Positions 14,171-61,886 of a DNA stretch of 64,000 nt are shown piece after piece. Positions within the stretch are counted from its first letter, which is position 1. The number at the start of each line of letters is the position of its first letter. Where the stretch lies: positions 768 through 64,767 of the forward strand of contig CAYIIU010000002.1 of the NCBI GenBank assembly GCA_964363635.1, read 5' to 3'. The notes under the pieces were generated by a model, which was given only the letters and a program-made list of their open reading frames with translations, made no database searches and was not told the origin of the DNA. Position numbers and translations under genes: made by a program. The stretch is from an uncultured archaeon (GTDB lineage Archaea > Iainarchaeota > Iainarchaeia > Iainarchaeales > VGJJ01).

Positions 14171-15037
14171 CTATTCTGCCTCCCGTTTCGCGGCATGTTC
14201 CAATTTTGGAAATCCGCGCGCATCTTCATTCCGCGTGATTTCGGTTGTGACCCGTTCTCCCAGCATATTGAAGATGAGCTCTAAATCATTCGGCCTTTTT
14301 AGAAAAAAGGCCGGCGAAAAAGGTTGATACCTCGCCCTTTAGGGCGACCTTTGTCGCCCATTGTTTGGCGAGCGAGCGCGCGAGCAAGTGACGTTCTTGC
14401 CCATATGGATACCGTGGCCTTTAGGCCACGGAGGAAGTCATTCATGTGGTCGCGCACGTTTTCTTTTTTCAGTCCTTTGAAATCCCTGTATTCGTTGTGT
14501 GTCATCCCAAATGTCGCTTTTGAAATCTCCGCCGTGAGGATGGCGAAATCTCTTCCTTCTTCCACTCCTCGTTTTTTTCCACTCGCTGGTTAATTCATCC
14601 CGGACCACGATGCCCCTCACTCTCTTTTCGATCCAATCTTCTGAATACCCCTTTGCGCGGTACGTTTCTCGTATCCGTTTTTGGGCCAGTTCCGGATCTT
14701 CAATCTCCTGCACGCGTTCGTATCCCACTTTTGCCAGCCATCGCTTGAAGGGTTCAGCTTTGGGAGATGGAATGGATTGGATGATGCGAAACATATTCTG
14801 AGTGTTGGCACAGTCCGTTTCGTATAATTTACCATCCGAAGAGGGCAATTTCAGTTGTAAACAAAATGTTAACAACTGAGTTTCCCGTCCTTTGAGAACA
14901 CCCCAATACTGTCGCGGGGATGGGCTTTCAGTCAAAGCCTCTACTACATCTACCACCGAAAAATGCCATTCTTTGTTGTGCCAAACCCTTCGAATTTTTT
15001 TATCCTGAAAAACAACCAGTGCGCTTTCTTGAGTCAT
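14171..15037 (-). pseudogene. dinD: dinD-like (DNA-damage-inducible protein D / Bro-N domain) gene, disrupted twice
   Basis: N-terminal VVFQDKKIRRVWHNKEWHFSVVDVV...IQSIPSPKAEPFKRWLAKVGYERVQEIEDPE is DinD-like. The frame breaks at the T7/A7 run 14572-14578, and one fewer A restores EWKKRGVEEGRDFAILTAEISKATFG. A 152-nt element (14291-14442) splits DHMND|LELIFNMLGE, and the remaining ORF continues to a TAG at 14171. Confidence 0.75.
14291..14442 (+). mobile_element. MITE copy A (about 150 nt, hairpin-ended, TCATT-flanked; IS200/IS605-derived PATE-like)
   Basis: The left flank is TCATT. The element reads CGGCCTTTTTAGAAAAAAGGCCG, then GATACC-TCGCCC-TTTA-GGGCGA, then GATACC-GTGGCC-TTTA-GGCCAC-GGAGGAAGTCATT. 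Near-identical copies lie at 24584-24736 and 33000-33154. Removing the element plus one TCATT restores the dinD frame. Confidence 0.75.
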
Positions 15038-15326: not shown

Positions 15327-15341
15327 GCAGCGATGGCGGAG
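15327..15341 (+). repeat. Duplicate of the first 15 nt of tRNA-Ser
   Basis: GCAGCGATGGCGGAG is identical to 15420-15434. It is directly preceded by TTTTCAAAAGTTT, the same palindromic element that abuts the 5' ends of tRNA-Arg and tRNA-Leu. Confidence 0.8.
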
Positions 15342-15419
15342 CAGTCCGGCAGCCTTTTAGGAAAAGGCTGGCGAAAACTGGGGAAAACCCCGGGGAAAAC
15401 TGTGATGCAATTGCTGAAT

Positions 15420-15503
15420 GCAGCGATGGCGGAGTGGTCTAACGCGCCGGTCTGGAAAGCCGGTCTCCTCACGGAGGCACGAGTTCAAATCTCGTTCGCT
15501 GCG
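15420..15503 (+). tRNA. tRNA-Ser (anticodon GGA), class II, CCA not encoded
   Basis: Manual cloverleaf: acceptor GCAGCGA/TCGCTGC, 3-bp D stem GCG/CGC, anticodon stem CCGGT/GCCGG with loop CTGGAAA, long variable arm CTCC-TCAC-GGAG, and T arm ACGAG-TTCAAAT-CTCGT. Confidence 0.9.
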
Positions 15504-15616
15504 TCACTCCTTTTTCTTTTTGAGAAAAAGAAAAAGTGTGCGGCCAGTCAAAAAGAAAAACGAGGGGTATTTCTTTGAAATACCCCGATCTCGGTGTAGC
15601 CGGACGAAAACGGCTG

Positions 15617-15638
15617 TTCTAAATCTCGTTCGCTGCGT
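15617..15638 (+). repeat. Partial duplicate of the tRNA-Ser 3' end (T loop to discriminator)
   Basis: TTCTAAATCTCGTTCGCTGCGT compares with TTCAAATCTCGTTCGCTGCGT at the genuine tRNA 3' end. Confidence 0.8.
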
Positions 15639-15804
15639 ATCAAATAGAAATCAAACGCACTCGAAGCCTTTTTATCCAACCGAAGAGGATTGAACGATAT
15701 GCACGAAGACACATTATACCACAAAGACTTTCAACAGAGCCCTTTCAACAGAGCCGTGGATTCGAGTTTGTAATAAATTGCGTAATCGTCTCACTATACT
15801 CAAA

Positions 15805-16416
15805 TTATCTTTTGCGTGTTCTTTGATAACCCCTCCGATGGATCGTTATTTTGGAAGGGGTTGGTGCTCTTGACCATCGAGCCAGTTTATCTATTAACTT
15901 TTCGACTGCTCGTGCTCGCCGCATTCGTTCCGTGCTTGATTCTGGATTTTCTCCTTTTCGTGAAAAACCAACTTCAGCAAAATTACCTTCTTTCATAAAA
16001 CCATCAAACGTTGCTTGCTCTTCTCCTGATAATCTTTCTCGCATTTGAGAAGCCCATTCGTGGTCTTCCAATTGTTGAAAACCCCCATCTGTCGAAATAT
16101 TTCTCACACGCTTCAGTGGAACAGCTCGCGATGCAATCTTTCTTGATACAATCCTTCTTTTTTGACGAAGTGTTCTAAAGGTATTAATCACCGCCCGCTT
16201 GATGTAGGTCTCTCGGTCAGCAGCGGTCTCTCCTCGCATGCCCGATTGTAATAATCGCAGGCTTGTTTGTTGAGCTAAATCCTGCCATGCTACCTTTCGG
16301 CTCCCTGTTTGATTATTAGTCACACGTTGAGCATAATCAAGAATGAATGGGAAATATTCTTCTATGCGCTTTCGTGTATCTGGAAGAATGGGTGTTCGAA
16401 CTTTTGAAGTTGGCAT
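15805..16416 (-). CDS. ECF sigma-70-like protein (region 2 plus region 4 signatures)
   Basis: Region-2-like: WQDLAQQTSLRLLQS...ETYIKRAVINTFRTLRQKRR. Region-4-like: LSGEEQATFDGFMKEGNFAEVGFSRKGENPESSTERMRRARAVEKL. Confidence 0.6.
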   Translation of the reverse strand: MPTSKVRTPILPDTRKRIEEYFPFILDYAQRVTNNQTGSRKVAWQDLAQQTSLRLLQSGMRGETAADRETYIKRAVINTFRTLRQKRRIVSRKIASRAVPLKRVRNISTDGGFQQLEDHEWASQMRERLSGEEQATFDGFMKEGNFAEVGFSRKGENPESSTERMRRARAVEKLIDKLARWSRAPTPSKITIHRRGYQRTRKR

Positions 16417-16718
16417 ATTTCAGTCAGGAGACGGAAGAATAAAAAACAGAGCTAAAACGACTATTTGTTTAATCTGAGGAATTAAACTCAAGAAGAAGGC
16501 ATTATCGCCCAATTAATTTGGTGTGGAGCGCGGATAAAGCTCCGTTTGACCAAACCAAAGCTAAATCGAGGAGTTTTCTTCCAAGGAATAGAGAGATATT
16601 CAGACTCTGTCAGATAGAACTTTTCGCGGTAGATGGTCATTTCAGTTGTAAACAAAATGTGTACAACTGATTTTCGTTCCCTTTGAGGACTCAATACCTA
16701 TATGTAGGAGGACGTTGC

Positions 16719-17462
16719 TTATAACTTTTGAAGCAGGTCAATCACTTTATTTGGGTCTGTTTTTAGCATGGTAGATGCATTGCTAATCGTTCCGTCGATG
16801 GTGAATCGTTCTAATTTCTCTTTGAATTTTTGCACTGCTTTTTTGTTTAACCCTTTGGTTCGTATTCGATGCCCATTTTCGATGAGCCAGCTACGGGGGT
16901 CGCTGTTGAGCAGTGCATAAAGGTCAGCAATATCTTTCGTGCGCTTGAAACTGTCTCGTCGTTCGGGGGTTGATTTTAGTTTCATTTGGATTAGAATTTT
17001 GGACGAGGGCACCATAATCTGAATATCGTTGATTTGGATATAGGCTCGTTCTTTTTCAAAGACTTTCTTAAGCAGCGGTTCAGGCATCACATGTTCCATT
17101 TTGATAGGAGTTGCAATGTCCACGTAGATAATTGAAGTAAAGTGAAAAGGATGAGTTTTGGTTTCGATCAAACTCAATTCTCTTTCGGTTTCACTGTCAA
17201 AGTATCGTGCCCACCGAAAGGTGGAATGGGGATGAAAACCCATTCTCCTTAGTTTTTCCTCAACGGAACGGAGGGTTATTTTGGTTGGATCAAAGAAAAT
17301 ATCAATATCACGAGAACCCATATGTTCCACTCCATTATTTTTTAGGGTGTAATGGACGGCCCACCCTCCCATAAGACCAATGTCTTTCCTTTCTTCCGAG
17401 TTTAGACTCTGGAAGAACACGTAGAGCAGTTCATCGGACTTTTCAATCATCAACTTTTCCAT
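16719..17462 (-). CDS. Nucleotidyltransferase-fold protein (AbiEii-like putative toxin)
   Basis: GLMGGWAVHYTL...GSRDIDIFFDP is a G(G/S)...DxD NTase motif. A C-terminal KRTKDIADLYALL follows. It is 7 nt downstream of a wHTH-like partner. Confidence 0.55.
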   Translation of the reverse strand: MEKLMIEKSDELLYVFFQSLNSEERKDIGLMGGWAVHYTLKNNGVEHMGSRDIDIFFDPTKITLRSVEEKLRRMGFHPHSTFRWARYFDSETERELSLIETKTHPFHFTSIIYVDIATPIKMEHVMPEPLLKKVFEKERAYIQINDIQIMVPSSKILIQMKLKSTPERRDSFKRTKDIADLYALLNSDPRSWLIENGHRIRTKGLNKKAVQKFKEKLERFTIDGTISNASTMLKTDPNKVIDLLQKL

Positions 17463-17469
17463 GTGAACA

Positions 17470-18219
17470 TCACAACCGGTTGTTTAACCATTTTTCGATG
17501 AGAAAATGGGCATGCTCTTCCGCCAATCCCCCAAAACTTAGTAGGTCGGCTAATAGAATGGGGGCAGGGGCCACTGAAAAACCCTTTAACTTTGTTGCAT
17601 TCCGGAAGAAAGATTCTTGGGATGACGATAAGAGAGGAATAAGGAAAAGGTTTGCTTGGTTTTTGGATGCCTTCAGGAATTTCTGGGAGAGGAGGTACTT
17701 ATTCCAGTTTTCTTCCTCGTCCTTGTGGATATAGGTATGTACTTGATCGGTTTTCACGTAGGGGTGATAGAGTTCGCTTCCAGCGAAAAGAGTGAACGCG
17801 TAAGGAAGTTTAGATGCGTGAATCACTTTCAAGGTCTTTGAAAAATCGTGAGGCGAATAATAATTGTTCGTCTTCAAACTGGCGAATGGTCGAGCCAATG
17901 AAATGAGTTTGAGAATGTCATTTACCTTTGTCACGCGATACTCAGTAGTTTTGCTATCCTTTACTACGTGTCCATTTTTCTCCAGCTCTTTTACAAATGT
18001 AAAAGTGGGGCCATACGTCAAGGCCTTATCCTGGTCAGAAAAGGAAGCCTTTTTGGAAACGTGGCTCTTTTCCTTACGATTCCCTTCGGCTGCTTTCTTT
18101 TGTAGCTCGTAAATACTCCACTTTTTCTCCTTATTCTTCAGCATCCACAAGAGAGATGCCAATCGCTTTTCGGTAAGCTCGAGCATACTATATTCGTTTA
18201 ACGAATAGTATATAAACAT
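17470..18219 (-). CDS. Putative wHTH partner (AbiEi-like antitoxin or regulator) of the NTase
   Basis: The N-terminal SLLWMLKNKEKKWSIYELQKKAA...NGHVVKDSKTTEYRVTKV has a winged-helix-like pattern, and the gene is operonic with 16719..17462. Confidence 0.4.
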   Translation of the reverse strand: MFIYYSLNEYSMLELTEKRLASLLWMLKNKEKKWSIYELQKKAAEGNRKEKSHVSKKASFSDQDKALTYGPTFTFVKELEKNGHVVKDSKTTEYRVTKVNDILKLISLARPFASLKTNNYYSPHDFSKTLKVIHASKLPYAFTLFAGSELYHPYVKTDQVHTYIHKDEEENWNKYLLSQKFLKASKNQANLFLIPLLSSSQESFFRNATKLKGFSVAPAPILLADLLSFGGLAEEHAHFLIEKWLNNRL

Positions 18220-18288
18220 AGCGAATACCTCATTTTGATCCTATTTCACAATAGGATGGAATTATTAAGTCTAACCAGTTGTATTATT

Positions 18289-18352
18289 CAACGATAAAAA
18301 GGCATCGAAAAACAAGCTTTCGAATTCTATTTGGGAGGCGCGTTCGCTGCGT
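18289..18352 (+). repeat. Islet junction repeat ending in the tRNA-Ser 3'-end core
   Basis: CAACGATAAAAAGGCATCGAAAAACAAGCTTTCGAATTCTATTTGGGAGGCGCGTTCGCTGCGT has a near-identical copy at 19213-19276. Its start, ATAAAAAGGCATCGAAAAA, also occurs at 1242-1260. Confidence 0.8.
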
Positions 18353-18365
18353 TTCCCTTTTCTTT

Positions 18366-18764
18366 TCAGACTTCCACCATTTGTATTTCTATTCCGTCCA
18401 AATCGGTTTGGGGTAGTACGGTTTGTTTGTTTTTCTTGAGTTCGATGAGTCGTCTGCCGGATAGGTAGTGTAAGTCTCGGCTGATAGCTTCGGTTTTTCG
18501 GTCTAATTGTTTGGCAATCTCGCTCACACCTTTCGTTTGCTTTTGATGCTTCAACTGTATCAAATAGCGCAAGAGATCAAGACGGGCGGGTGAGAGCATC
18601 TGATGTAATTGCTCATACGAATCCACGTACACCATTTTTTGGGGTTGGAGAATGGCTTTATCAGGATTCTCGAAAAATTCCATCTCATCCTTTTCCATGT
18701 CTCCTCCAATGACTATCGTCAAGAGATTTTTCTTGTTCATCTTTTCACTTTTCTTCATAGACAA
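18366..18764 (-). CDS. Winged-helix DNA-binding protein
   Basis: LSPARLDLLRYLIQLKHQKQTKGVSEIAKQLDRKTEAISRDLHYLSGRRLIELKK is an ArsR/MarR-type wHTH pattern. Confidence 0.6.
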   Translation of the reverse strand: MSMKKSEKMNKKNLLTIVIGGDMEKDEMEFFENPDKAILQPQKMVYVDSYEQLHQMLSPARLDLLRYLIQLKHQKQTKGVSEIAKQLDRKTEAISRDLHYLSGRRLIELKKNKQTVLPQTDLDGIEIQMVEV

Positions 18765-18806
18765 TTACTTAACTTTAAAGTTAATAAACCTATTGGGCAA
18801 CTGCCA

Positions 18807-19166
18807 TTAAGGTTTATCGGTAAGATATTTTTGGATATAACGTTCTCGATAGTTTAGCCAGTTTTCGAGAATATCCTTTCGGCAACGGCGAACGAGGTCT
18901 GGGGTAATGGGTTCATCACTGTCAATCACTTTGGCATGGGGTCCCTCATAGTAATTATGCACGTGATATTTTCCGTGCGCACAATCGTGCTTCTTGACTT
19001 CGTAAACAACCCCTTCAAAGTCATACCACTGAATCACCACGAATTTGATGACCTGCTTGGTTTCGGTGTCCAACTGAACTTCCGTAAAAATATGGTCGTC
19101 TGTTGCCCTTGGTAATAACTTGGTCTTTTGATGCCAAACAAAACCCATTTCCAAACACCTTTGCAA
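18807..19166 (-). CDS. Hypothetical 119-aa protein with a His-rich core, upstream partner of the wHTH gene (possible TA-like pair)
   Basis: It contains KKHDCAHGKYHVHNYYEGPH and has a two-gene arrangement with 18366..18764. The family assignment is not secure. Confidence 0.4.
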   Translation of the reverse strand: MQRCLEMGFVWHQKTKLLPRATDDHIFTEVQLDTETKQVIKFVVIQWYDFEGVVYEVKKHDCAHGKYHVHNYYEGPHAKVIDSDEPITPDLVRRCRKDILENWLNYRERYIQKYLTDKP

Positions 19167-19212
19167 CTGAGAATCAACGATAGGATTATTAAGAATAAGG
19201 AAAATAATTTCT

Positions 19213-19276
19213 CAACGATAAAAAAGCATCGAAAAACAAGCTTTCAAATTCTATTTTGGAAGCGCGTTCGCTGCGT
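19213..19276 (+). repeat. Second copy of the islet junction repeat ending in the tRNA-Ser 3'-end core
   Basis: CAACGATAAAAAAGCATCGAAAAACAAGCTTTCAAATTCTATTTTGGAAGCGCGTTCGCTGCGT. Composition becomes more G+C-rich immediately after it. Confidence 0.8.
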
Positions 19277-19339
19277 ACCGATTAGGCAATAATTACATTT
19301 CACCCGCTCGCTTTTATACTTCGCCAATTTAACTATCTG

Positions 19340-19882
19340 ATGACCACGTCTCCTGGTAATGGACCGCGATTTAATTCACGGCGCAAAGGAATGCGGCGCG
19401 TTGGATTATCGAATACTAATCACCCTGTTGGACCCTTTCGTCCTGTAAAAGAAGAAGCGCGTTTAAGTGTCGGACTCGAAGAAAGAGTGACATCCCACAT
19501 TCGAAGGAGCAAGAGGCGTTTTTTTGGGAGATTAGGTTTATTGTTTGGAGCGGGTGTTGCAGGCACATCCGCCACGCTCATGATTAAAGACCGGGAATTG
19601 GCTGAAAAAGTTCGTATGGCAATAGGTATACTCTATACGGTTGGATCAGCCAGCTTTCTCCATTCATCTATTTCCAAACAGCAACGCGGAAAAGAAGTAG
19701 AAGAAATCACCCGCGCTTTAAACGAGGAGGCGCGCCGCAACAAAAAATTATCCGAAATGGCAGAACAATACGCGTATGTAGCTATTAACAAAAATGGAAA
19801 AATGTGGGGGACGAATCACCCGAAGTTAGCCATGGCTCTGCGCGATGCCCTTGTCATCTCAAGCGGAAAAATACTTTCCTAG
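19340..19882 (+). CDS. Hypothetical protein with one predicted TM segment
   Basis: 180-aa ORF with an ATG start, a basic N-terminus and the hydrophobic stretch LGLLFGAGVAGTSATLMI. Confidence 0.5.
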   Translation: MTTSPGNGPRFNSRRKGMRRVGLSNTNHPVGPFRPVKEEARLSVGLEERVTSHIRRSKRRFFGRLGLLFGAGVAGTSATLMIKDRELAEKVRMAIGILYTVGSASFLHSSISKQQRGKEVEEITRALNEEARRNKKLSEMAEQYAYVAINKNGKMWGTNHPKLAMALRDALVISSGKILS

Positions 19883-19942
19883 GCAAAGTAGATCATCCAT
19901 TAAACCAACCATTTATTATCAGCTAACAAATGAAATAGTATC

Positions 19943-20353
19943 ATGCTAACCAGCTGCATCTTTTGCCAAATCGTCTCGGGAAAAACCCCTTGCCACAAGA
20001 TTTACGAGGACAAAAAATATCTCGCATTTTTGGACATCCGTCCGATTGCTCCCGGCCACGTTTTAGTGGTGCCCAAAAAACATTCGCAGGATTTGCTGCA
20101 TGCTGCTCCCACCGAGCAAAAAGGACTGCTTGAAATAGCAGTCAAAATTGCGCCGGCCATTTTGCGTGCAACGGGCGCGAGCGCGTTCAACATCGGAATC
20201 AACACGGGAAAAGAATCCGGACAGGTTGTTTTTCACACGCACGTGCACATCATTCCGCGTACGGCCAAAGATGGAATAAAATCATGGGAAAATCTTTCAA
20301 GTAAAACACTTGATTTAGCTAGAATTGCCGAGCAAATACGTCTGAAAATGTAA
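19943..20353 (+). CDS. HIT-family (histidine triad) protein
   Basis: It has CIFCQI near the N-terminus and the triad HTHVHIIPR. Confidence 0.9.
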   Translation: MLTSCIFCQIVSGKTPCHKIYEDKKYLAFLDIRPIAPGHVLVVPKKHSQDLLHAAPTEQKGLLEIAVKIAPAILRATGASAFNIGINTGKESGQVVFHTHVHIIPRTAKDGIKSWENLSSKTLDLARIAEQIRLKM

Positions 20354-21456: not shown

Positions 21457-21682
21457 ATGGCCGCTAACCTGCGGCCGTGCGGAAAAATTTTGAGGGATTG
21501 TAAATCCCTCAAGAAGCTGTCCTGAATTTACGAACGAAACCTTTTTCCAGCCGTTTCTTAAACGTCTAGTGTCAATGGATAATACAAGGCCTGTTTCGGC
21601 AGGCCGCGTCGACAGACTATTATCGAGGGTTTGCCACTGCAAACCCTCATATAGGCTTTTGATCAAACTTTTGCAAAAGTTT

Positions 21683-21760
<78 letters not shown>

Positions 21761-25182: not shown

Positions 25183-27828
25183 TTATTCCAAATAAATTGC
25201 GGGGCGGCCTTTCACGGCTTTGGACATTTTTTCCAGTGGATCGTGGGCGTCGTTAATGGAAATGGTGAATTGGGTGTGTTTGGCCAACGCGTCGCGGGCA
25301 CTCTCCAGCCATTGGGTTTCCTTCTCATCCTTGGAATAAATAAAACCTATTTTGGGCTGTTTTCCGCGTACAAGCTTGCGAACGTGCTCCAAATCCTGTA
25401 AAACGCTTTCGATGAACACCACTTGCTCTTCAATGGCCTGATTGGGCTTTCCGTGTGGTTTGGAAATAATCATCGTGCTTACGAGCTTTCCAAATTTGGC
25501 TTTCTCTCCCAATTCTTCGGCAAGGAATGGAGTGATGGGGGAAATAAGGAGAACCCATTCTTTCAGCATTTTTTTCACAGCAGGCGCTTCGTCAATGCCA
25601 AACACTTTCTTGAAACGCTTCACTTCGTTGAGGGTTTCAAAAAATGCTTTCTGCGCAGCGTACATGTATTCGAATTTCTCGTACGCCTCGTACGCTTCGC
25701 ACAATCGTACACGCAAACTCTCCACCAGCCATTCATGGGCGGGCAATAATTTTTCATCGGTGGATTCAATCGCGTGCGCGAGAGTGCGTTCCACTTCATT
25801 CAGCTTGCTCCGCACTTGAGGAACTTGGTTGTCTTTCCAGTCCGCAACCCGCTCAAAACTGGCCGATGAAACGGTAAATAATCGCACCAAGTCCGCGGAG
25901 AATTCATTCACGGCATTTTGGAGCGGAATGACATTTCCTTTGGACTTGGACATTTTTTGCCCGTTGCGCACCAACATTTCATTGAATGAAAGTCCGCCCG
26001 GCCAAAATTCTTTTGGAAACAAAAGGGTATGTGTGAAGAGAAAAAAAGAAATATGATTGGAGATGTGCGCGGGCGCCGTGTGCCTCAAATCATTGGGGTA
26101 CCAATACTTCACTTCCGAGAAAATTTTGTTTGTGATTTCCATGCGCGTATCATTCGAGGGTAATTTTTTTCCCAAGATGGCGGCATCGTAGAATGCTTCA
26201 TCCAACTGTGCTATACTCAATTTCGCTCCGCGAATGTGGGTAATGGCGATGTAGAAAACCATGTAAATAGTTGAATCGGAGAGCGGTTCAATCATCCACT
26301 CATCACCTTCTACGAGGGGGAATTTGGTGCCGAGACCGCGTTTGCGGATACAGGGGCGTTTTTCCAGCCAGTCAATGGCCTCGTGAATGGATTTCTTGAA
26401 ATACGCAGGATAGACGGGGATTTTGTCCAAAAGCGCATGGGTTTTTTGCTTCCACTCTTTTGATGAATAATCCAAGAACCACTGGTCCTCCAACACGGCC
26501 ACTGCAATAGGATTTCCCGCGCGTGTAAATGCACGGCGCGAGGGTTCGTGCAGCGTGTCGCTGCGATTTTTTTCGTGGAGTGTTTTGAGAATCTTTTCTT
26601 TGGCGGCCTGCACACTCATACCCACTAAGAAACCATTCTTGAGGTTCATTTTTCCTTCATAGAATTCCTTTTTGTAGATTTCTTCGGTCGCGGTTTGCAA
26701 CCCTTCACGGTGTTTCAAACTCGTGGCTTTCTTCTCGGCGAGCAAATGTTCAATTCCCTCAAAGCCGGGCGTGTCGATGATGAAAATAGGGTTAATTTTT
26801 TCCGTACCGGGATACTTTTGCAGTTTCAACTCATATAAGGCAATAAAATCGAAGGGAGCGTGGCCCGGTACAGAGTACACGACGCCGGTTCCTTTCTCGG
26901 CGGAAACGAAACCTGCCGGAAGGATGGGAATTTTTATTTTTTCATCTAATGGGTTGCTTGCATTTTTGTCGATTAGAATTTGTCCGGAAATTTTTTCGAT
27001 GATTTCAAACTTTTTTCCCTGCAGGGCGAGTTTTTCCAACGCCTTTTCGGCAACAATCCATTCTTCATTGTTCCAGCGCGCACGGACATATTCGACTTGC
27101 GGATTCACCCACAAATTGGTGCAACCGTAAAGGGTTTCAGGCCTGAGGGTGGATGCGACGAGGAACGTGTTGGGTTTGTCAAACGGAAACTTAATGAGTG
27201 AAAATTCTTGAATTTGGACTTTTTCGGTGTCCCCATCCTTGATGTCGTCTTCTCCCACGGCGTTCTTGTCTACGGGAGAATAAAGGATGGGGTATTTTCC
27301 TTTGACTAATACGCCCTTTGCGTAGAGTTTGCGGAATTGCCACTGGACAAATTTTTGATACTCGCTATCCATGGTCGTGAACACGGGGCGCCAGTCAATC
27401 GAACAACCTAACTTGTCCAAGTCCTCGCGCACGTGCGCAGCGAAATACGTTGCCACGTTCGCCGGATTGACAAACGATTGGATGATGCCGGGAATTTTGG
27501 TTTTGTCTTTTTCATAAATGCCCAAATATTCGGTGTAGAGTTTTATCATTTCGACATCATTGCGCTTAATCGAATCGCTAATCGCCAATACGGGAGTTCC
27601 CGTCACGTGAAAGCCCATGGGCCAAAAAACATTCTCTCCTTTCAAGCGGTGGAAGCGCGCGGTCACATCTCCATTTGTATAGGTGCGGCCGTGTCCCACG
27701 TGCAAGGGTCCTGTAGGATACGCATACGGCACGGTGAAAAAGAACTTTTTTTCGTTGGAAAGGGAAGAGGGTTCAAACACGCCTGACGCGTGCCATTTTT
27801 GGATCCATTTTTGTTCGCGCGAGTCCAT
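25183..27828 (-). CDS. leuS: Leucyl-tRNA synthetase (archaeal/eukaryal type)
   Basis: HVGHGRTY (HIGH) and KMSKSKGN (KMSKS) motifs. I trimmed the start to MDSREQKWIQKWHASGVFEP (ATG 27828). Confidence 0.9.
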   Translation of the reverse strand: MDSREQKWIQKWHASGVFEPSSLSNEKKFFFTVPYAYPTGPLHVGHGRTYTNGDVTARFHRLKGENVFWPMGFHVTGTPVLAISDSIKRNDVEMIKLYTEYLGIYEKDKTKIPGIIQSFVNPANVATYFAAHVREDLDKLGCSIDWRPVFTTMDSEYQKFVQWQFRKLYAKGVLVKGKYPILYSPVDKNAVGEDDIKDGDTEKVQIQEFSLIKFPFDKPNTFLVASTLRPETLYGCTNLWVNPQVEYVRARWNNEEWIVAEKALEKLALQGKKFEIIEKISGQILIDKNASNPLDEKIKIPILPAGFVSAEKGTGVVYSVPGHAPFDFIALYELKLQKYPGTEKINPIFIIDTPGFEGIEHLLAEKKATSLKHREGLQTATEEIYKKEFYEGKMNLKNGFLVGMSVQAAKEKILKTLHEKNRSDTLHEPSRRAFTRAGNPIAVAVLEDQWFLDYSSKEWKQKTHALLDKIPVYPAYFKKSIHEAIDWLEKRPCIRKRGLGTKFPLVEGDEWMIEPLSDSTIYMVFYIAITHIRGAKLSIAQLDEAFYDAAILGKKLPSNDTRMEITNKIFSEVKYWYPNDLRHTAPAHISNHISFFLFTHTLLFPKEFWPGGLSFNEMLVRNGQKMSKSKGNVIPLQNAVNEFSADLVRLFTVSSASFERVADWKDNQVPQVRSKLNEVERTLAHAIESTDEKLLPAHEWLVESLRVRLCEAYEAYEKFEYMYAAQKAFFETLNEVKRFKKVFGIDEAPAVKKMLKEWVLLISPITPFLAEELGEKAKFGKLVSTMIISKPHGKPNQAIEEQVVFIESVLQDLEHVRKLVRGKQPKIGFIYSKDEKETQWLESARDALAKHTQFTISINDAHDPLEKMSKAVKGRPAIYLE

Positions 27829-27862
27829 AGGGGGTGCTTTCCTTTGATAAAGGAATTTAGCC

Positions 27863-28300
27863 TCAAAAAGGATTTTTAATGAACCCATGCAAATCGGGAA
27901 AAATGCTCGTTTGTCGGCCCAGTTTCCGATAGTGTTCATCCACTTTTGCCCGTGTCACGTACGGGTGGTGCTGGCGAAAGCCCCCGTTGAACGAATGGGG
28001 GATGTGGAGGAGTTCGTGAATAATCGTTTTCGTCTGCTCCTCTTCATTTTGCCGGTCGAATTTCTCCGAGACGAGTTCAATGGCGTAAAAAGGAGGTTGG
28101 TTTATTCCAAGCTGAATGATTTTGGGCATCGTGTGGATGCGTGCGATTACTCTGCGGGACTTGGATCCCTCGCTCTTGAAACAAACGACACGGTCTTCCA
28201 TAATATGTTTGAAATCAAGCTTGCGAATGACTTCAACCGTTTTCGTTGTCCATTCGGGAGAGGGGGTGTATTTCATACGCTCAACAAGGACGGATGCCAA
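27863..28300 (-). CDS. Predicted zinc metallopeptidase (HExxH)
   Basis: IIHELLHIPHSFNGGF contains HELLH plus a downstream His. The roughly 145-aa size fits small archaeal predicted metallopeptidases. Confidence 0.55.
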   Translation of the reverse strand: MASVLVERMKYTPSPEWTTKTVEVIRKLDFKHIMEDRVVCFKSEGSKSRRVIARIHTMPKIIQLGINQPPFYAIELVSEKFDRQNEEEQTKTIIHELLHIPHSFNGGFRQHHPYVTRAKVDEHYRKLGRQTSIFPDLHGFIKNPF

Positions 28301-60995: not shown

Positions 60996-61886
60996 ATGGG
61001 TTCTATTAAACGTCCTCGTTCCCGAGGAAAGATTAAGCCGGGAATGGTGGCGGTTGGAGGCGTTTTATTTCGGCGGGGTGAACCGCGCGAGAATGTGATT
61101 GCCTATTTCTTGAAGCGTTACGGAAGTGAACTTGGGATTACAACTTTCGATCAAATGGAACGCGTCTTGTTTGTGAAAACGAGGGGCAGTCATCCTAATT
61201 TCGCTGAACTATTTGAAAATAAGTCAAGGGATGACGTTACCAAAAGTTATCACGAATGGGTGCGAAAAAGAGAAGAACGAGCCGCAAACATTCGAGCGTC
61301 AATAGCCAAACGATTGTCTGATCCACTTGTGCGTCAAACTGTCAGCGACCGCTCGAAAAGGGTCATGGGAGAATTACACCGCGACCCAACCTTTGTGTCA
61401 AAACAATCGGCCAGCGCCTCAAAAACGTTGAAACTATGGCGAAATGATCCAGAAGGGAGAAAGCAGTATACACAACACATGCGCGCATTGCGTTCTGACC
61501 CCGGTTGGAATCAAAAACTTTCAGAAAACGTTAGTATGGGCATGCATGAACGATGGTTGGCATCGCGAAAGAAAAAGATGAATGAAATAATAGAAGATGG
61601 CGCGCTTCACGTTGAAGAATTTTCTGGAAACCGATGGGGAAAAAGACGAGCTCGAATCTTAGTAGCCGGGCCCCCTACCACATGGCGAACAACCCAAGAA
61701 GTTCAGCGAGTCCAACGAACACTTACCCGATTAACGGATATTGAACGAGAAGCTATCATCCAACTATTCTTCGACAAGCGTCCCATTTCAAAAGTTGCCA
61801 AAAGCCTCAACCAACCAGAAAAGACTATTTACCAAATCGTGGGGCCTGCCTACAAGAAGATAATGAGAGCATTCAGGGGGCAATAG
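60996..61886 (+). CDS. Basic protein with a sigma-70 region-4-like HTH at the C-terminus
   Basis: LTRLTDIEREAIIQLFFDKRPISKVAKSLNQPEKTIYQIVGPAYKKIMRAF follows the L..re..v..l.y....s..eIA..l......v......A..kl pattern. Confidence 0.55.
   Translation: MGSIKRPRSRGKIKPGMVAVGGVLFRRGEPRENVIAYFLKRYGSELGITTFDQMERVLFVKTRGSHPNFAELFENKSRDDVTKSYHEWVRKREERAANIRASIAKRLSDPLVRQTVSDRSKRVMGELHRDPTFVSKQSASASKTLKLWRNDPEGRKQYTQHMRALRSDPGWNQKLSENVSMGMHERWLASRKKKMNEIIEDGALHVEEFSGNRWGKRRARILVAGPPTTWRTTQEVQRVQRTLTRLTDIEREAIIQLFFDKRPISKVAKSLNQPEKTIYQIVGPAYKKIMRAFRGQ

Follow-up and report, generated by a model that had tools for sequence, protein, structure and literature searches.

A divergent sigma-70-like gene on a strain-specific tRNA-Ser islet of a DPANN archaeon

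The window analysed here, a stretch of 64,000 nucleotides from contig CAYIIU010000002.1 of an uncultured archaeon, carries on its minus strand (15805..16416; positions are those of the window unless a contig is named) an open reading frame (ORF) for an orphan protein of 203 amino acids that resembles sigma-70 factors. The gene lies on a strain-specific islet of about 4.4 kb (15506..19940), inserted behind a tRNA-Ser(GGA) gene. The original prediction, made from the sequence alone, had read it as a sigma factor of the extracytoplasmic function (ECF) type; the frame, its length and its strand are exactly as given there, and both of the segments it quoted are found in the translation. The identification draws on the ORF listing, on a copy of the gene in a second contig, on sub-threshold matches to Sigma70_r2 and TIGR02937, and on comparisons with an archaeal family profile hidden Markov model (HMM) and with hhalign. 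The second carrier is a 2,145-bp contig from Hainich groundwater, assembled independently (ENA ERZ1292616, well H52, 0.1 um fraction), in which the same tRNA-Ser region and Bro-N gene come after the sigma-like gene. Across 700 aligned bases, comprising the sigma-like gene and its immediate flanks, this contig differs from the window at 2 bases. A single difference is nonsynonymous (Y28D), and the frame is of equal length, with its 203 codons intact. Since an independent assembly holds the same gene, an assembly artefact is excluded for it. The protein has a predicted isoelectric point of 11.2 and ends in a basic, disordered tail (residues 183-203; 15808..15870, minus strand) with 8 R/K and 0 acidic residues, low model confidence and no secondary structure; similar tails are present in a paralogue encoded on contig 18 of the same genome and in related genes of two congeners (G014 and G012). 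Upstream of the gene, 22-30 nt before the ATG, TTTTTTATT (16438..16446, minus strand) could serve as an archaeal TATA box in leaderless transcription, as read from the sequence alone.

The N-terminal half of the protein is a homologue of sigma region 2, and this assignment is solid. The sigma-2-like domain (residues 12-96; 16129..16383, minus strand) consists of three long helices in the predicted model and contains the motifs DLAQQ (46-50) and YIKRAVINT (71-79), with the core motifs and their spacing kept. Pfam Sigma70_r2 (PF04542) matched the whole protein with E=0.0015 and 18.7 bits, and the N-terminal half alone with 20.8 bits, the gathering score being 24 bits; likewise, TIGR02937 gave 25.3 bits against a curated cut-off of 42.9. 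A family HMM was prepared from aligned sigma-like ORFs of the same archaeal class, leaving out the protein under study and its paralogue. This profile ranked the protein 5th among the 3,518 ORFs of its genome (E=3.8e-4), ranks 1-4 all being sigma-like, and the Pfam, TIGR02937 and family profiles converge on residues 16-90. In hhalign the protein aligned with the archaeal family at Prob 82% and E=1.1e-5, collinearly across residues 5-181, and when it was combined with its paralogue the values were Prob 94% and E=1.2e-7. The N-terminal half alone scored 31.0 against the family, compared with 10.6 ± 2.1 for shuffled sequences, none of the 200 shuffles scoring as high (z=9.8). The proposed likeness to region 2 is thus above chance, yet it stays below the curated cut-offs in HMM searches, neither of which was reached.

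For the C-terminal half the evidence is more divided, and the sigma-4 domain (residues 111-182; 15871..16086, minus strand) is probably real but eroded. It is modelled as four helices (111-128, 131-143, 146-151 and 161-182), whose order and lengths are compatible with sigma-4 in both AlphaFold runs, and the full-length hhalign alignment passes through it collinearly. However, Pfam Sigma70_r4 and r4_2 gave no match, even with the isolated C-terminal half as query, and the HMM alignments of the protein break off before the helix-turn-helix (HTH). When aligned to the family on its own, the C-terminal half was marginal, with a score of 15.0 as compared to 9.0 ± 1.8 for shuffles, 2 of 200 of which scored as high (z=3.3). 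The same test on the C-terminal half of the paralogue gave z=3.6, with 1 of 200 shuffles as high. The turn of the HTH is a long, low-confidence loop (152-160) that exceeds the canonical spacing by one residue, and the contig-18 paralogue has equal spacing. Consequently, of the region-4-like HTH that had been proposed, the helix order and motifs stand, including the terminal ...RMRRARAVEKL helix, while profile support is lacking; the description as a full two-domain sigma factor was an overstatement, as the C-terminal half fails the r4 and r4_2 profiles.

The predicted fold is in line with this picture. Using an alignment of the family, AlphaFold returned a model with 3+4 helices and a mean predicted local distance difference test (pLDDT) score of 80.7. 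The sigma-2 helices (12-34, 44-58 and 65-96) have pLDDT above 92, and the sigma-4 helices lie at 72-87. A single-sequence control reached a pLDDT of 47.6 with the same seven helices, which supports the secondary structure only. The rows of the alignment behind the confident model are themselves sigma proteins, so the fold may be imposed by them, and the model is therefore no independent evidence for the tertiary fold. Within this limit, the top 34 Foldseek matches in the PDB were almost all sigma factors. For single domains, the MSA-based (multiple sequence alignment) model matched sigma-2 of SigR (1h3l) with a template-modelling (TM) score of 0.64-0.66 and a root-mean-square deviation (rmsd) of 3.1, and the N-terminal domain of SigE (8b3z) with a TM score of 0.64, the rmsd range of the SigR and SigE matches being 3.1-3.4. 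For the whole chain the E-values were weak (0.03-0.1, and from 0.09 upward for the PDB matches). A fold search of BFVD placed phage sigma factors at the top, with probabilities up to 0.97. In the model, helices 12-96 are joined by a 14-residue low-confidence linker to helices 111-182, and region 3 is absent. This layout supports a sigma-70-family-like, two-domain protein of ECF-like architecture.

By sequence the protein is an orphan. Among 5.8 billion word-indexed proteins no close homologue other than the protein itself came to light, and an exhaustive phmmer search of 1.84 billion protein representatives likewise retrieved nothing else; the contig-18 paralogue is an orphan as well. No sigma factor of the PDB was matched by the sequence or by a profile of the protein and its paralogue, nothing was matched in PHROGs, PADLOC or phage GenBank records, and the database searches returned no bacterial protein. 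Its detectable relatives are archaeal paralogues and congener genes only. The closest is the contig-18 paralogue, a protein of 216 aa that carries a canonical DADDLVQET motif (28% identity over 85 aa, E=1e-9). A congener gene from G012 shares 36% over 47 aa (E=5e-5), including a common ETAADR block, and by profile a 197-aa sigma-like protein of G003, which scores 61 bits with TIGR02937, is also among the nearest relatives. At 20-28% identity to the nearest relatives over fewer than 90 residues, a phylogenetic placement would be unreliable. With 1.84 billion representatives yielding the protein alone, and with archaeal relatives only, the suggestion of recent gene flow from the candidate phyla radiation (CPR) or other bacteria found no support.

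The related genes reveal how the subfamily behaves elsewhere. Those of contig 18 (G000, L002 583-1806), G012:C50 (L076) and G014:C1 (L078) occupy one common chromosomal slot, on the upstream side of a gene for a 182-aa membrane protein that is present in 16 of 17 congeners at 36-81% identity. The slot is vacant in at least four genomes (G002, G011, G015 and G001; loci L079, L089, L081 and L077). Its occupants in G012 and G014 are 30% identical and that of contig 18 is undetectable by BLAST from either, whereas the membrane neighbour is 77-81% identical. Two adjacent genes thus differ extremely in their rate of change. Because the slot is empty in several genomes and its occupants have diverged next to a conserved neighbour, the subfamily can be described as dispensable and hypervariable. 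The islet protein shares with the slot genes its length, its basic tail and a sigma-4 spacing one residue over canonical, but they reside in a fixed chromosomal slot and it resides on an inserted tRNA-Ser islet. The membrane protein downstream of the contig-18 paralogue was considered as a dedicated anti-sigma factor and rejected, as it is conserved in congeners with a vacant slot. Nor does a cognate anti-sigma gene adjoin the islet gene, whose neighbours are a Bro-N gene fragment, an AbiE pair and an attachment (att) scar.

The islet itself follows the tRNA-Ser(GGA) gene (15419..15505, plus strand; ARAGORN and Rfam), the integration target. An exact 18-nt repeat of the tRNA-Ser 3' end (15621..15638, plus strand) forms an att-like scar and bounds the module with the sigma-like gene. 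Two further att-like cores, both CGCGTTCGCTGCGT, lie at the ends of the two copies of a 98-nt repeat (18339..18352 and 19263..19276, plus strand). In four congeners (G012, G014, G011 and G015) a HIT-family gene follows the tRNA-Ser within about 110-150 bp, representing the empty site; here it starts at 19943, 4.45 kb further on. As the tRNA-Ser of the congeners nearly adjoins the HIT-family gene, the stretch of about 15506-19940 is a strain-specific insertion. Its GC content is 41.6%, against 45.8% for the genome, and none of the 16 congeners gave a DNA match to the sigma-like gene. No integrase is encoded in the islet, which is a tandem series of decayed remnants of integrated elements. On the minus strand, reading toward the tRNA, it holds a DUF7718/HVO_A0114 pair, an AbiEi/AbiEii pair, the Bro-N gene fragment and the sigma-like gene. 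The fragment (16488..16694, minus strand) adjoins the sigma-like gene upstream; it shares with an intact Bro-N gene a 60-nt repeat, 82% identical, whose other copy is at 14840-14899, has a DNA match to G012:C5 and is counted as a sign of decay. The AbiEii toxin (16719-17462, minus strand) was identified by Pfam AbiEii (E=6.7e-6), and the AbiEi-like antitoxin (17470-18219, minus strand) by a weak AbiEi_2 match (0.056). A homologous AbiE pair in G001 stands beside an HNH nuclease and a large ATPase, with no sigma-like gene nearby, and an obligate link between the sigma-like gene and AbiE was rejected on the grounds of this recurrence, as was a functional unit of the two.

The surrounding DNA is archaeal, and the host is a DPANN archaeon of the Iainarchaeum type. 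Archaeal RNase P RNA is encoded within the window, archaeal-type pilins are found on the 65.6-kb source contig, and the flanks of the islet are syntenic with the 16 congeners. Metagenome-assembled genomes (MAGs), one of which, the closest relative with a name, is Candidatus Iainarchaeum, encode proteins that share 81-86% identity with a housekeeping protein of the window. With RNase P on the contig, att-like repeats and the empty site in congeners, the archaeal mobile setting of the gene was confirmed. The same RNase P, the synteny of the flanks, the empty sites and the Ca. Iainarchaeum relative led to the rejection of bacterial contamination or misbinning as the origin of the islet. The genome (1.29 Mb, 89.6% complete) holds a single RNA polymerase beta-type locus, a split archaeal Rpo2 that scored 172.7 bits against a bacterial rpoB cut-off of 801, and a classical Zn-ribbon TFB is present; no bacterial core RNA polymerase was found in the genome at this completeness. 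The Rpo2 locus (G000:C4:20005-23341) comprises two ORFs, with frames of 503 and 628 aa. Split Rpo2 is also seen in methanogens and halophiles.

A full two-domain sigma-like protein had been called unexpected in an archaeal mobile islet, a view that is not borne out. Sigma-70 family genes (fam00359) have been reported in DPANN archaea, where misbinning was ruled out and no anti-sigma factors were found (Castelle et al. 2021, PMC8204110), with a prevalence chiefly in Woesearchaeota (PMC8204110), and a 2025 study described rpoS-like genes in DPANN viruses and one prophage (PMC12647753). Class-wide, 98 of 215 genomes gave a TIGR02937 match at E<=1e-5, 40 of them above the curated cut-off. Among the positives are single-contig genomes and contigs several hundred kb long, often with several copies and sometimes with tandem arrays. 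With the archaeal family profile, bacterial sigma factors of solved structure are matched at E-values down to 1e-44. The genome studied here has at least four further sigma-like ORFs. Among its other members are proteins of 335 aa (48.7 bits, beside archaeal Pth2) and 214 aa (40.1 bits, encoded on contig 15) and the 216-aa contig-18 paralogue, and two more proteins have a sigma-4-type HTH only, one of them encoded at 60996-61886. A mobile context recurs in G025, where two sigma-like genes that flank a nitroreductase (G025:C7, L025) lie beside a tyrosine recombinase. In G145:C47 (L028) three tandem sigma-like paralogues with a common N-terminal extension stand beside a NOL1/NOP2/Sun-type methyltransferase. 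The strongest sigma matches of the class, in G211:C75 (L015, 130 bits) and G107:C74 (L016, 92 bits), are primary-sigma-like with region 3; their contigs are only 3.2 and 2.8 kb long, come from very small MAGs and may be misbinned bacterial fragments.

The islet protein lies on a verified archaeal contig and matches the class-wide family profile, as expected of a DPANN sigma-70 protein. With the published examples (PMC8204110) it shares a sigma-2 plus sigma-4 layout, a DPANN chromosome with TBP/TFB-type transcription and the lack of an anti-sigma factor. Unlike them, it is an orphan that falls below the curated thresholds, with an eroded region 4 and a basic tail, and its gene belongs to a strain-specific tRNA-Ser islet and not to the core genome, in a host of the Iainarchaeum type. 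It is among the most eroded copies of the family, and as the category has already been published it is a known kind of protein. Comparison with bacterial ECF factors of group 4 (E. coli sigma-E, M. tuberculosis sigma-H and S. coelicolor SigR) shows the same size of about 200 aa, two domains and a short linker, a sigma-2 fold match, and region 2.2-like (DLAQQ) and 2.4-like (RAVINT) motifs together with the C-terminal helix. In contrast to these factors, the islet protein resides in a genome without bacterial core polymerase, has no anti-sigma partner and has a longer HTH turn; it also scores under the TIGR02937 and Pfam r2 cut-offs, with no r4_2 match. ECF sigma factors in general lack regions 1.1 and 3, and a co-encoded anti-sigma factor is typical of them, albeit not universal. 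Phage sigma factors resemble the islet protein in being small sigma-like proteins of mobile elements and supply its top BFVD fold matches; conversely, it has no phage or PHROG sequence match, its host polymerase is archaeal, and its islet is decayed, without recognisable virion genes.

Given the observed homology, architecture, genomic setting, orphan status and family distribution, the ORF is probably a very divergent accessory member of the DPANN sigma-70-like proteins, carried on a decayed tRNA-Ser element and most likely acting as a DNA-binding regulator. The protein could not work as a classical sigma factor, since the archaeal RNA polymerase and TFB of this genome are not accompanied by a bacterial core enzyme. 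It would instead bind DNA through the sigma-4-like HTH and the basic tail, the sigma-2 domain might serve as a partner-binding surface, and genes of the element or of the host may be regulated in this way. Several observations weigh against such a reading: no curated region-2 cut-off was attained, r4 and r4_2 were not matched, the region-4 turn is long and of low confidence, the whole-chain Foldseek values are weak, the confident model may owe its fold to the alignment while the unbiased single-sequence model is unconfident, and the surroundings of the gene are decaying. Some of these points also speak for a chance resemblance, in which an unrelated basic helical protein merely happens to look like a sigma factor: every curated profile score lies under its threshold, the sequence search of the PDB returned no sigma factor, and the model obtained from a single sequence is unconfident. 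Nevertheless, three independent profiles agree on residues 16-90, none of the 200 shuffles equalled the sigma-2 score, an in-genome paralogue with the canonical DADDLVQET motif matches at E=1e-9, and the alignment is collinear over both domains, so that coincidence is very unlikely. Sigma-70 is a bacterial hallmark, and this, together with the fact that some of the strongest class-wide matches (G211:C75 and G107:C74) are on possibly misbinned contigs of about 3 kb, could speak for bacterial contamination, or for a transfer from CPR or other bacteria that took place very recently. The contig of the gene studied here, however, is 65.6 kb long and also encodes archaeal RNase P and pilins of archaeal type, the flanks of the gene are syntenic with 16 congeners and no bacterial protein matches its product, which leaves such an origin barely credible.

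The main rival is that the gene is a decaying relic, the leftover of a degraded integrated element that drifts without function toward a pseudogene. Its orphan status among 1.84 billion protein representatives, the eroded region 4, the islet without an integrase and with a Bro-N gene fragment directly upstream, the absence of the gene from all 16 congeners, and the variable presence and very fast divergence of the related slot genes are all in accordance with decay. Still, the frame of 203 codons is unbroken and equally long in the second, independently assembled contig, sigma-2 keeps its core motifs and the distances between them, a TATA-like element appears to stand upstream at the right distance, and two eroded paralogues keep equal sigma-4 spacing, which suggests constraint. 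On these grounds a relic is considered rather unlikely. A different kind of function is conceivable as well. The clamp coiled-coil of archaeal RNA polymerase is the structural counterpart of the beta-prime clamp helices in bacteria, and phage sigma factors and appropriators are known to redirect or inhibit the transcription of their bacterial hosts. By analogy, sigma-2 could dock on the archaeal clamp coiled-coil and thereby redirect or inhibit host transcription on behalf of the mobile element. The region-2.2-type motif (DLxQE/Q) is the best-conserved part of the family and is retained in the islet protein, the family is widespread in genomes with archaeal polymerase only, phage sigma factors lead the viral fold matches, and rpoS-like genes have been reported in DPANN viruses (PMC12647753). 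Conversely, the motif may be conserved for fold stability alone, and this copy is among the most eroded; an RNA-polymerase-directed factor is accordingly regarded as decidedly unlikely. A broader proposal, that iainarchaeal sigma-like proteins are hypervariable accessory factors whose sigma-2 sits on the polymerase clamp coiled-coil and is used by elements or host to redirect or block transcription, is speculative to a similar degree and seems improbable.

Since the DPANN reports of 2021, the question has been what role sigma-like proteins of bacterial type play in archaea that have no bacterial RNA polymerase. To this the gene on the tRNA-Ser islet adds that sigma-like genes also travel on elements integrated at tRNA genes, that its subfamily is dispensable and diverges extremely fast, and that the sigma-2 core survives while sigma-4 erodes. 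The last of these suggests that function may reside in a partner-binding surface rather than in promoter recognition. If docking on the polymerase were true, it would mean that a bacterial-type sigma module functions within TBP/TFB-based transcription and evolves in an arms race. Being small, easily expressed and soluble by its looks, the protein lends itself to direct assays of a possible binding to archaeal polymerase or DNA; yet it is among the most degenerate examples and would not be the best first choice for study, the 214-aa contig-15 protein and the 197-aa G003 protein being better preserved.

Some further features of the region concern mobile DNA around the islet. The intact Bro-N gene (14438-15037, minus strand) is multi-copy in its own genome and in congeners, and its product matches the PADLOC candidate defence family PDC-S13 (E=8e-73) and phrog_15286 (E=9e-58). 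Just downstream of it lies a repeat of about 157 bp (14286-14442) that looks like a miniature inverted-repeat transposable element. Many other copies, at 80-100% identity, are on contigs 3, 9 and 35 and at C2:25345 and C2:33757; among congeners, G005 for example has more than 10 copies and G003 more than 8. The 120-nt stretch that separates the 3' end of the tRNA-Ser from the first att-like repeat (15506-15627) has copies of 78-86% identity at unrelated congener sites (three in G005, two in G015 and two in G008) and may represent the conserved end of a family of integrative elements. Within the islet, a module of two genes (18366-19166, minus strand) lies exactly between two att-like cores. 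One encodes an HVO_A0114-type HTH protein, which has weak winged-helix matches of the CasR/Csa3-like kind, and the other a DUF7718 protein; the module has a DNA match to G001:C11 and may be a small toxin-antitoxin-like or addiction module.

Two observations relate to other parts of the window. The 918-aa housekeeping protein (25183-27939, minus strand) has as its next relatives beyond the Iainarchaeum-type MAGs CPR bacteria (Parcubacteria/Paceibacteria) at 23-24% identity, these CPR relatives coming from a pattern-limited scan, and may be a bacterial-type enzyme in an archaeon. Finally, the first 15 nt of the tRNA-Ser gene are duplicated 93 nt upstream of it (15327-15341), together with a promoter-like TTTTCAAAAGTTTGC motif that is also found upstream of a tRNA-Arg gene, at 21670-21684.

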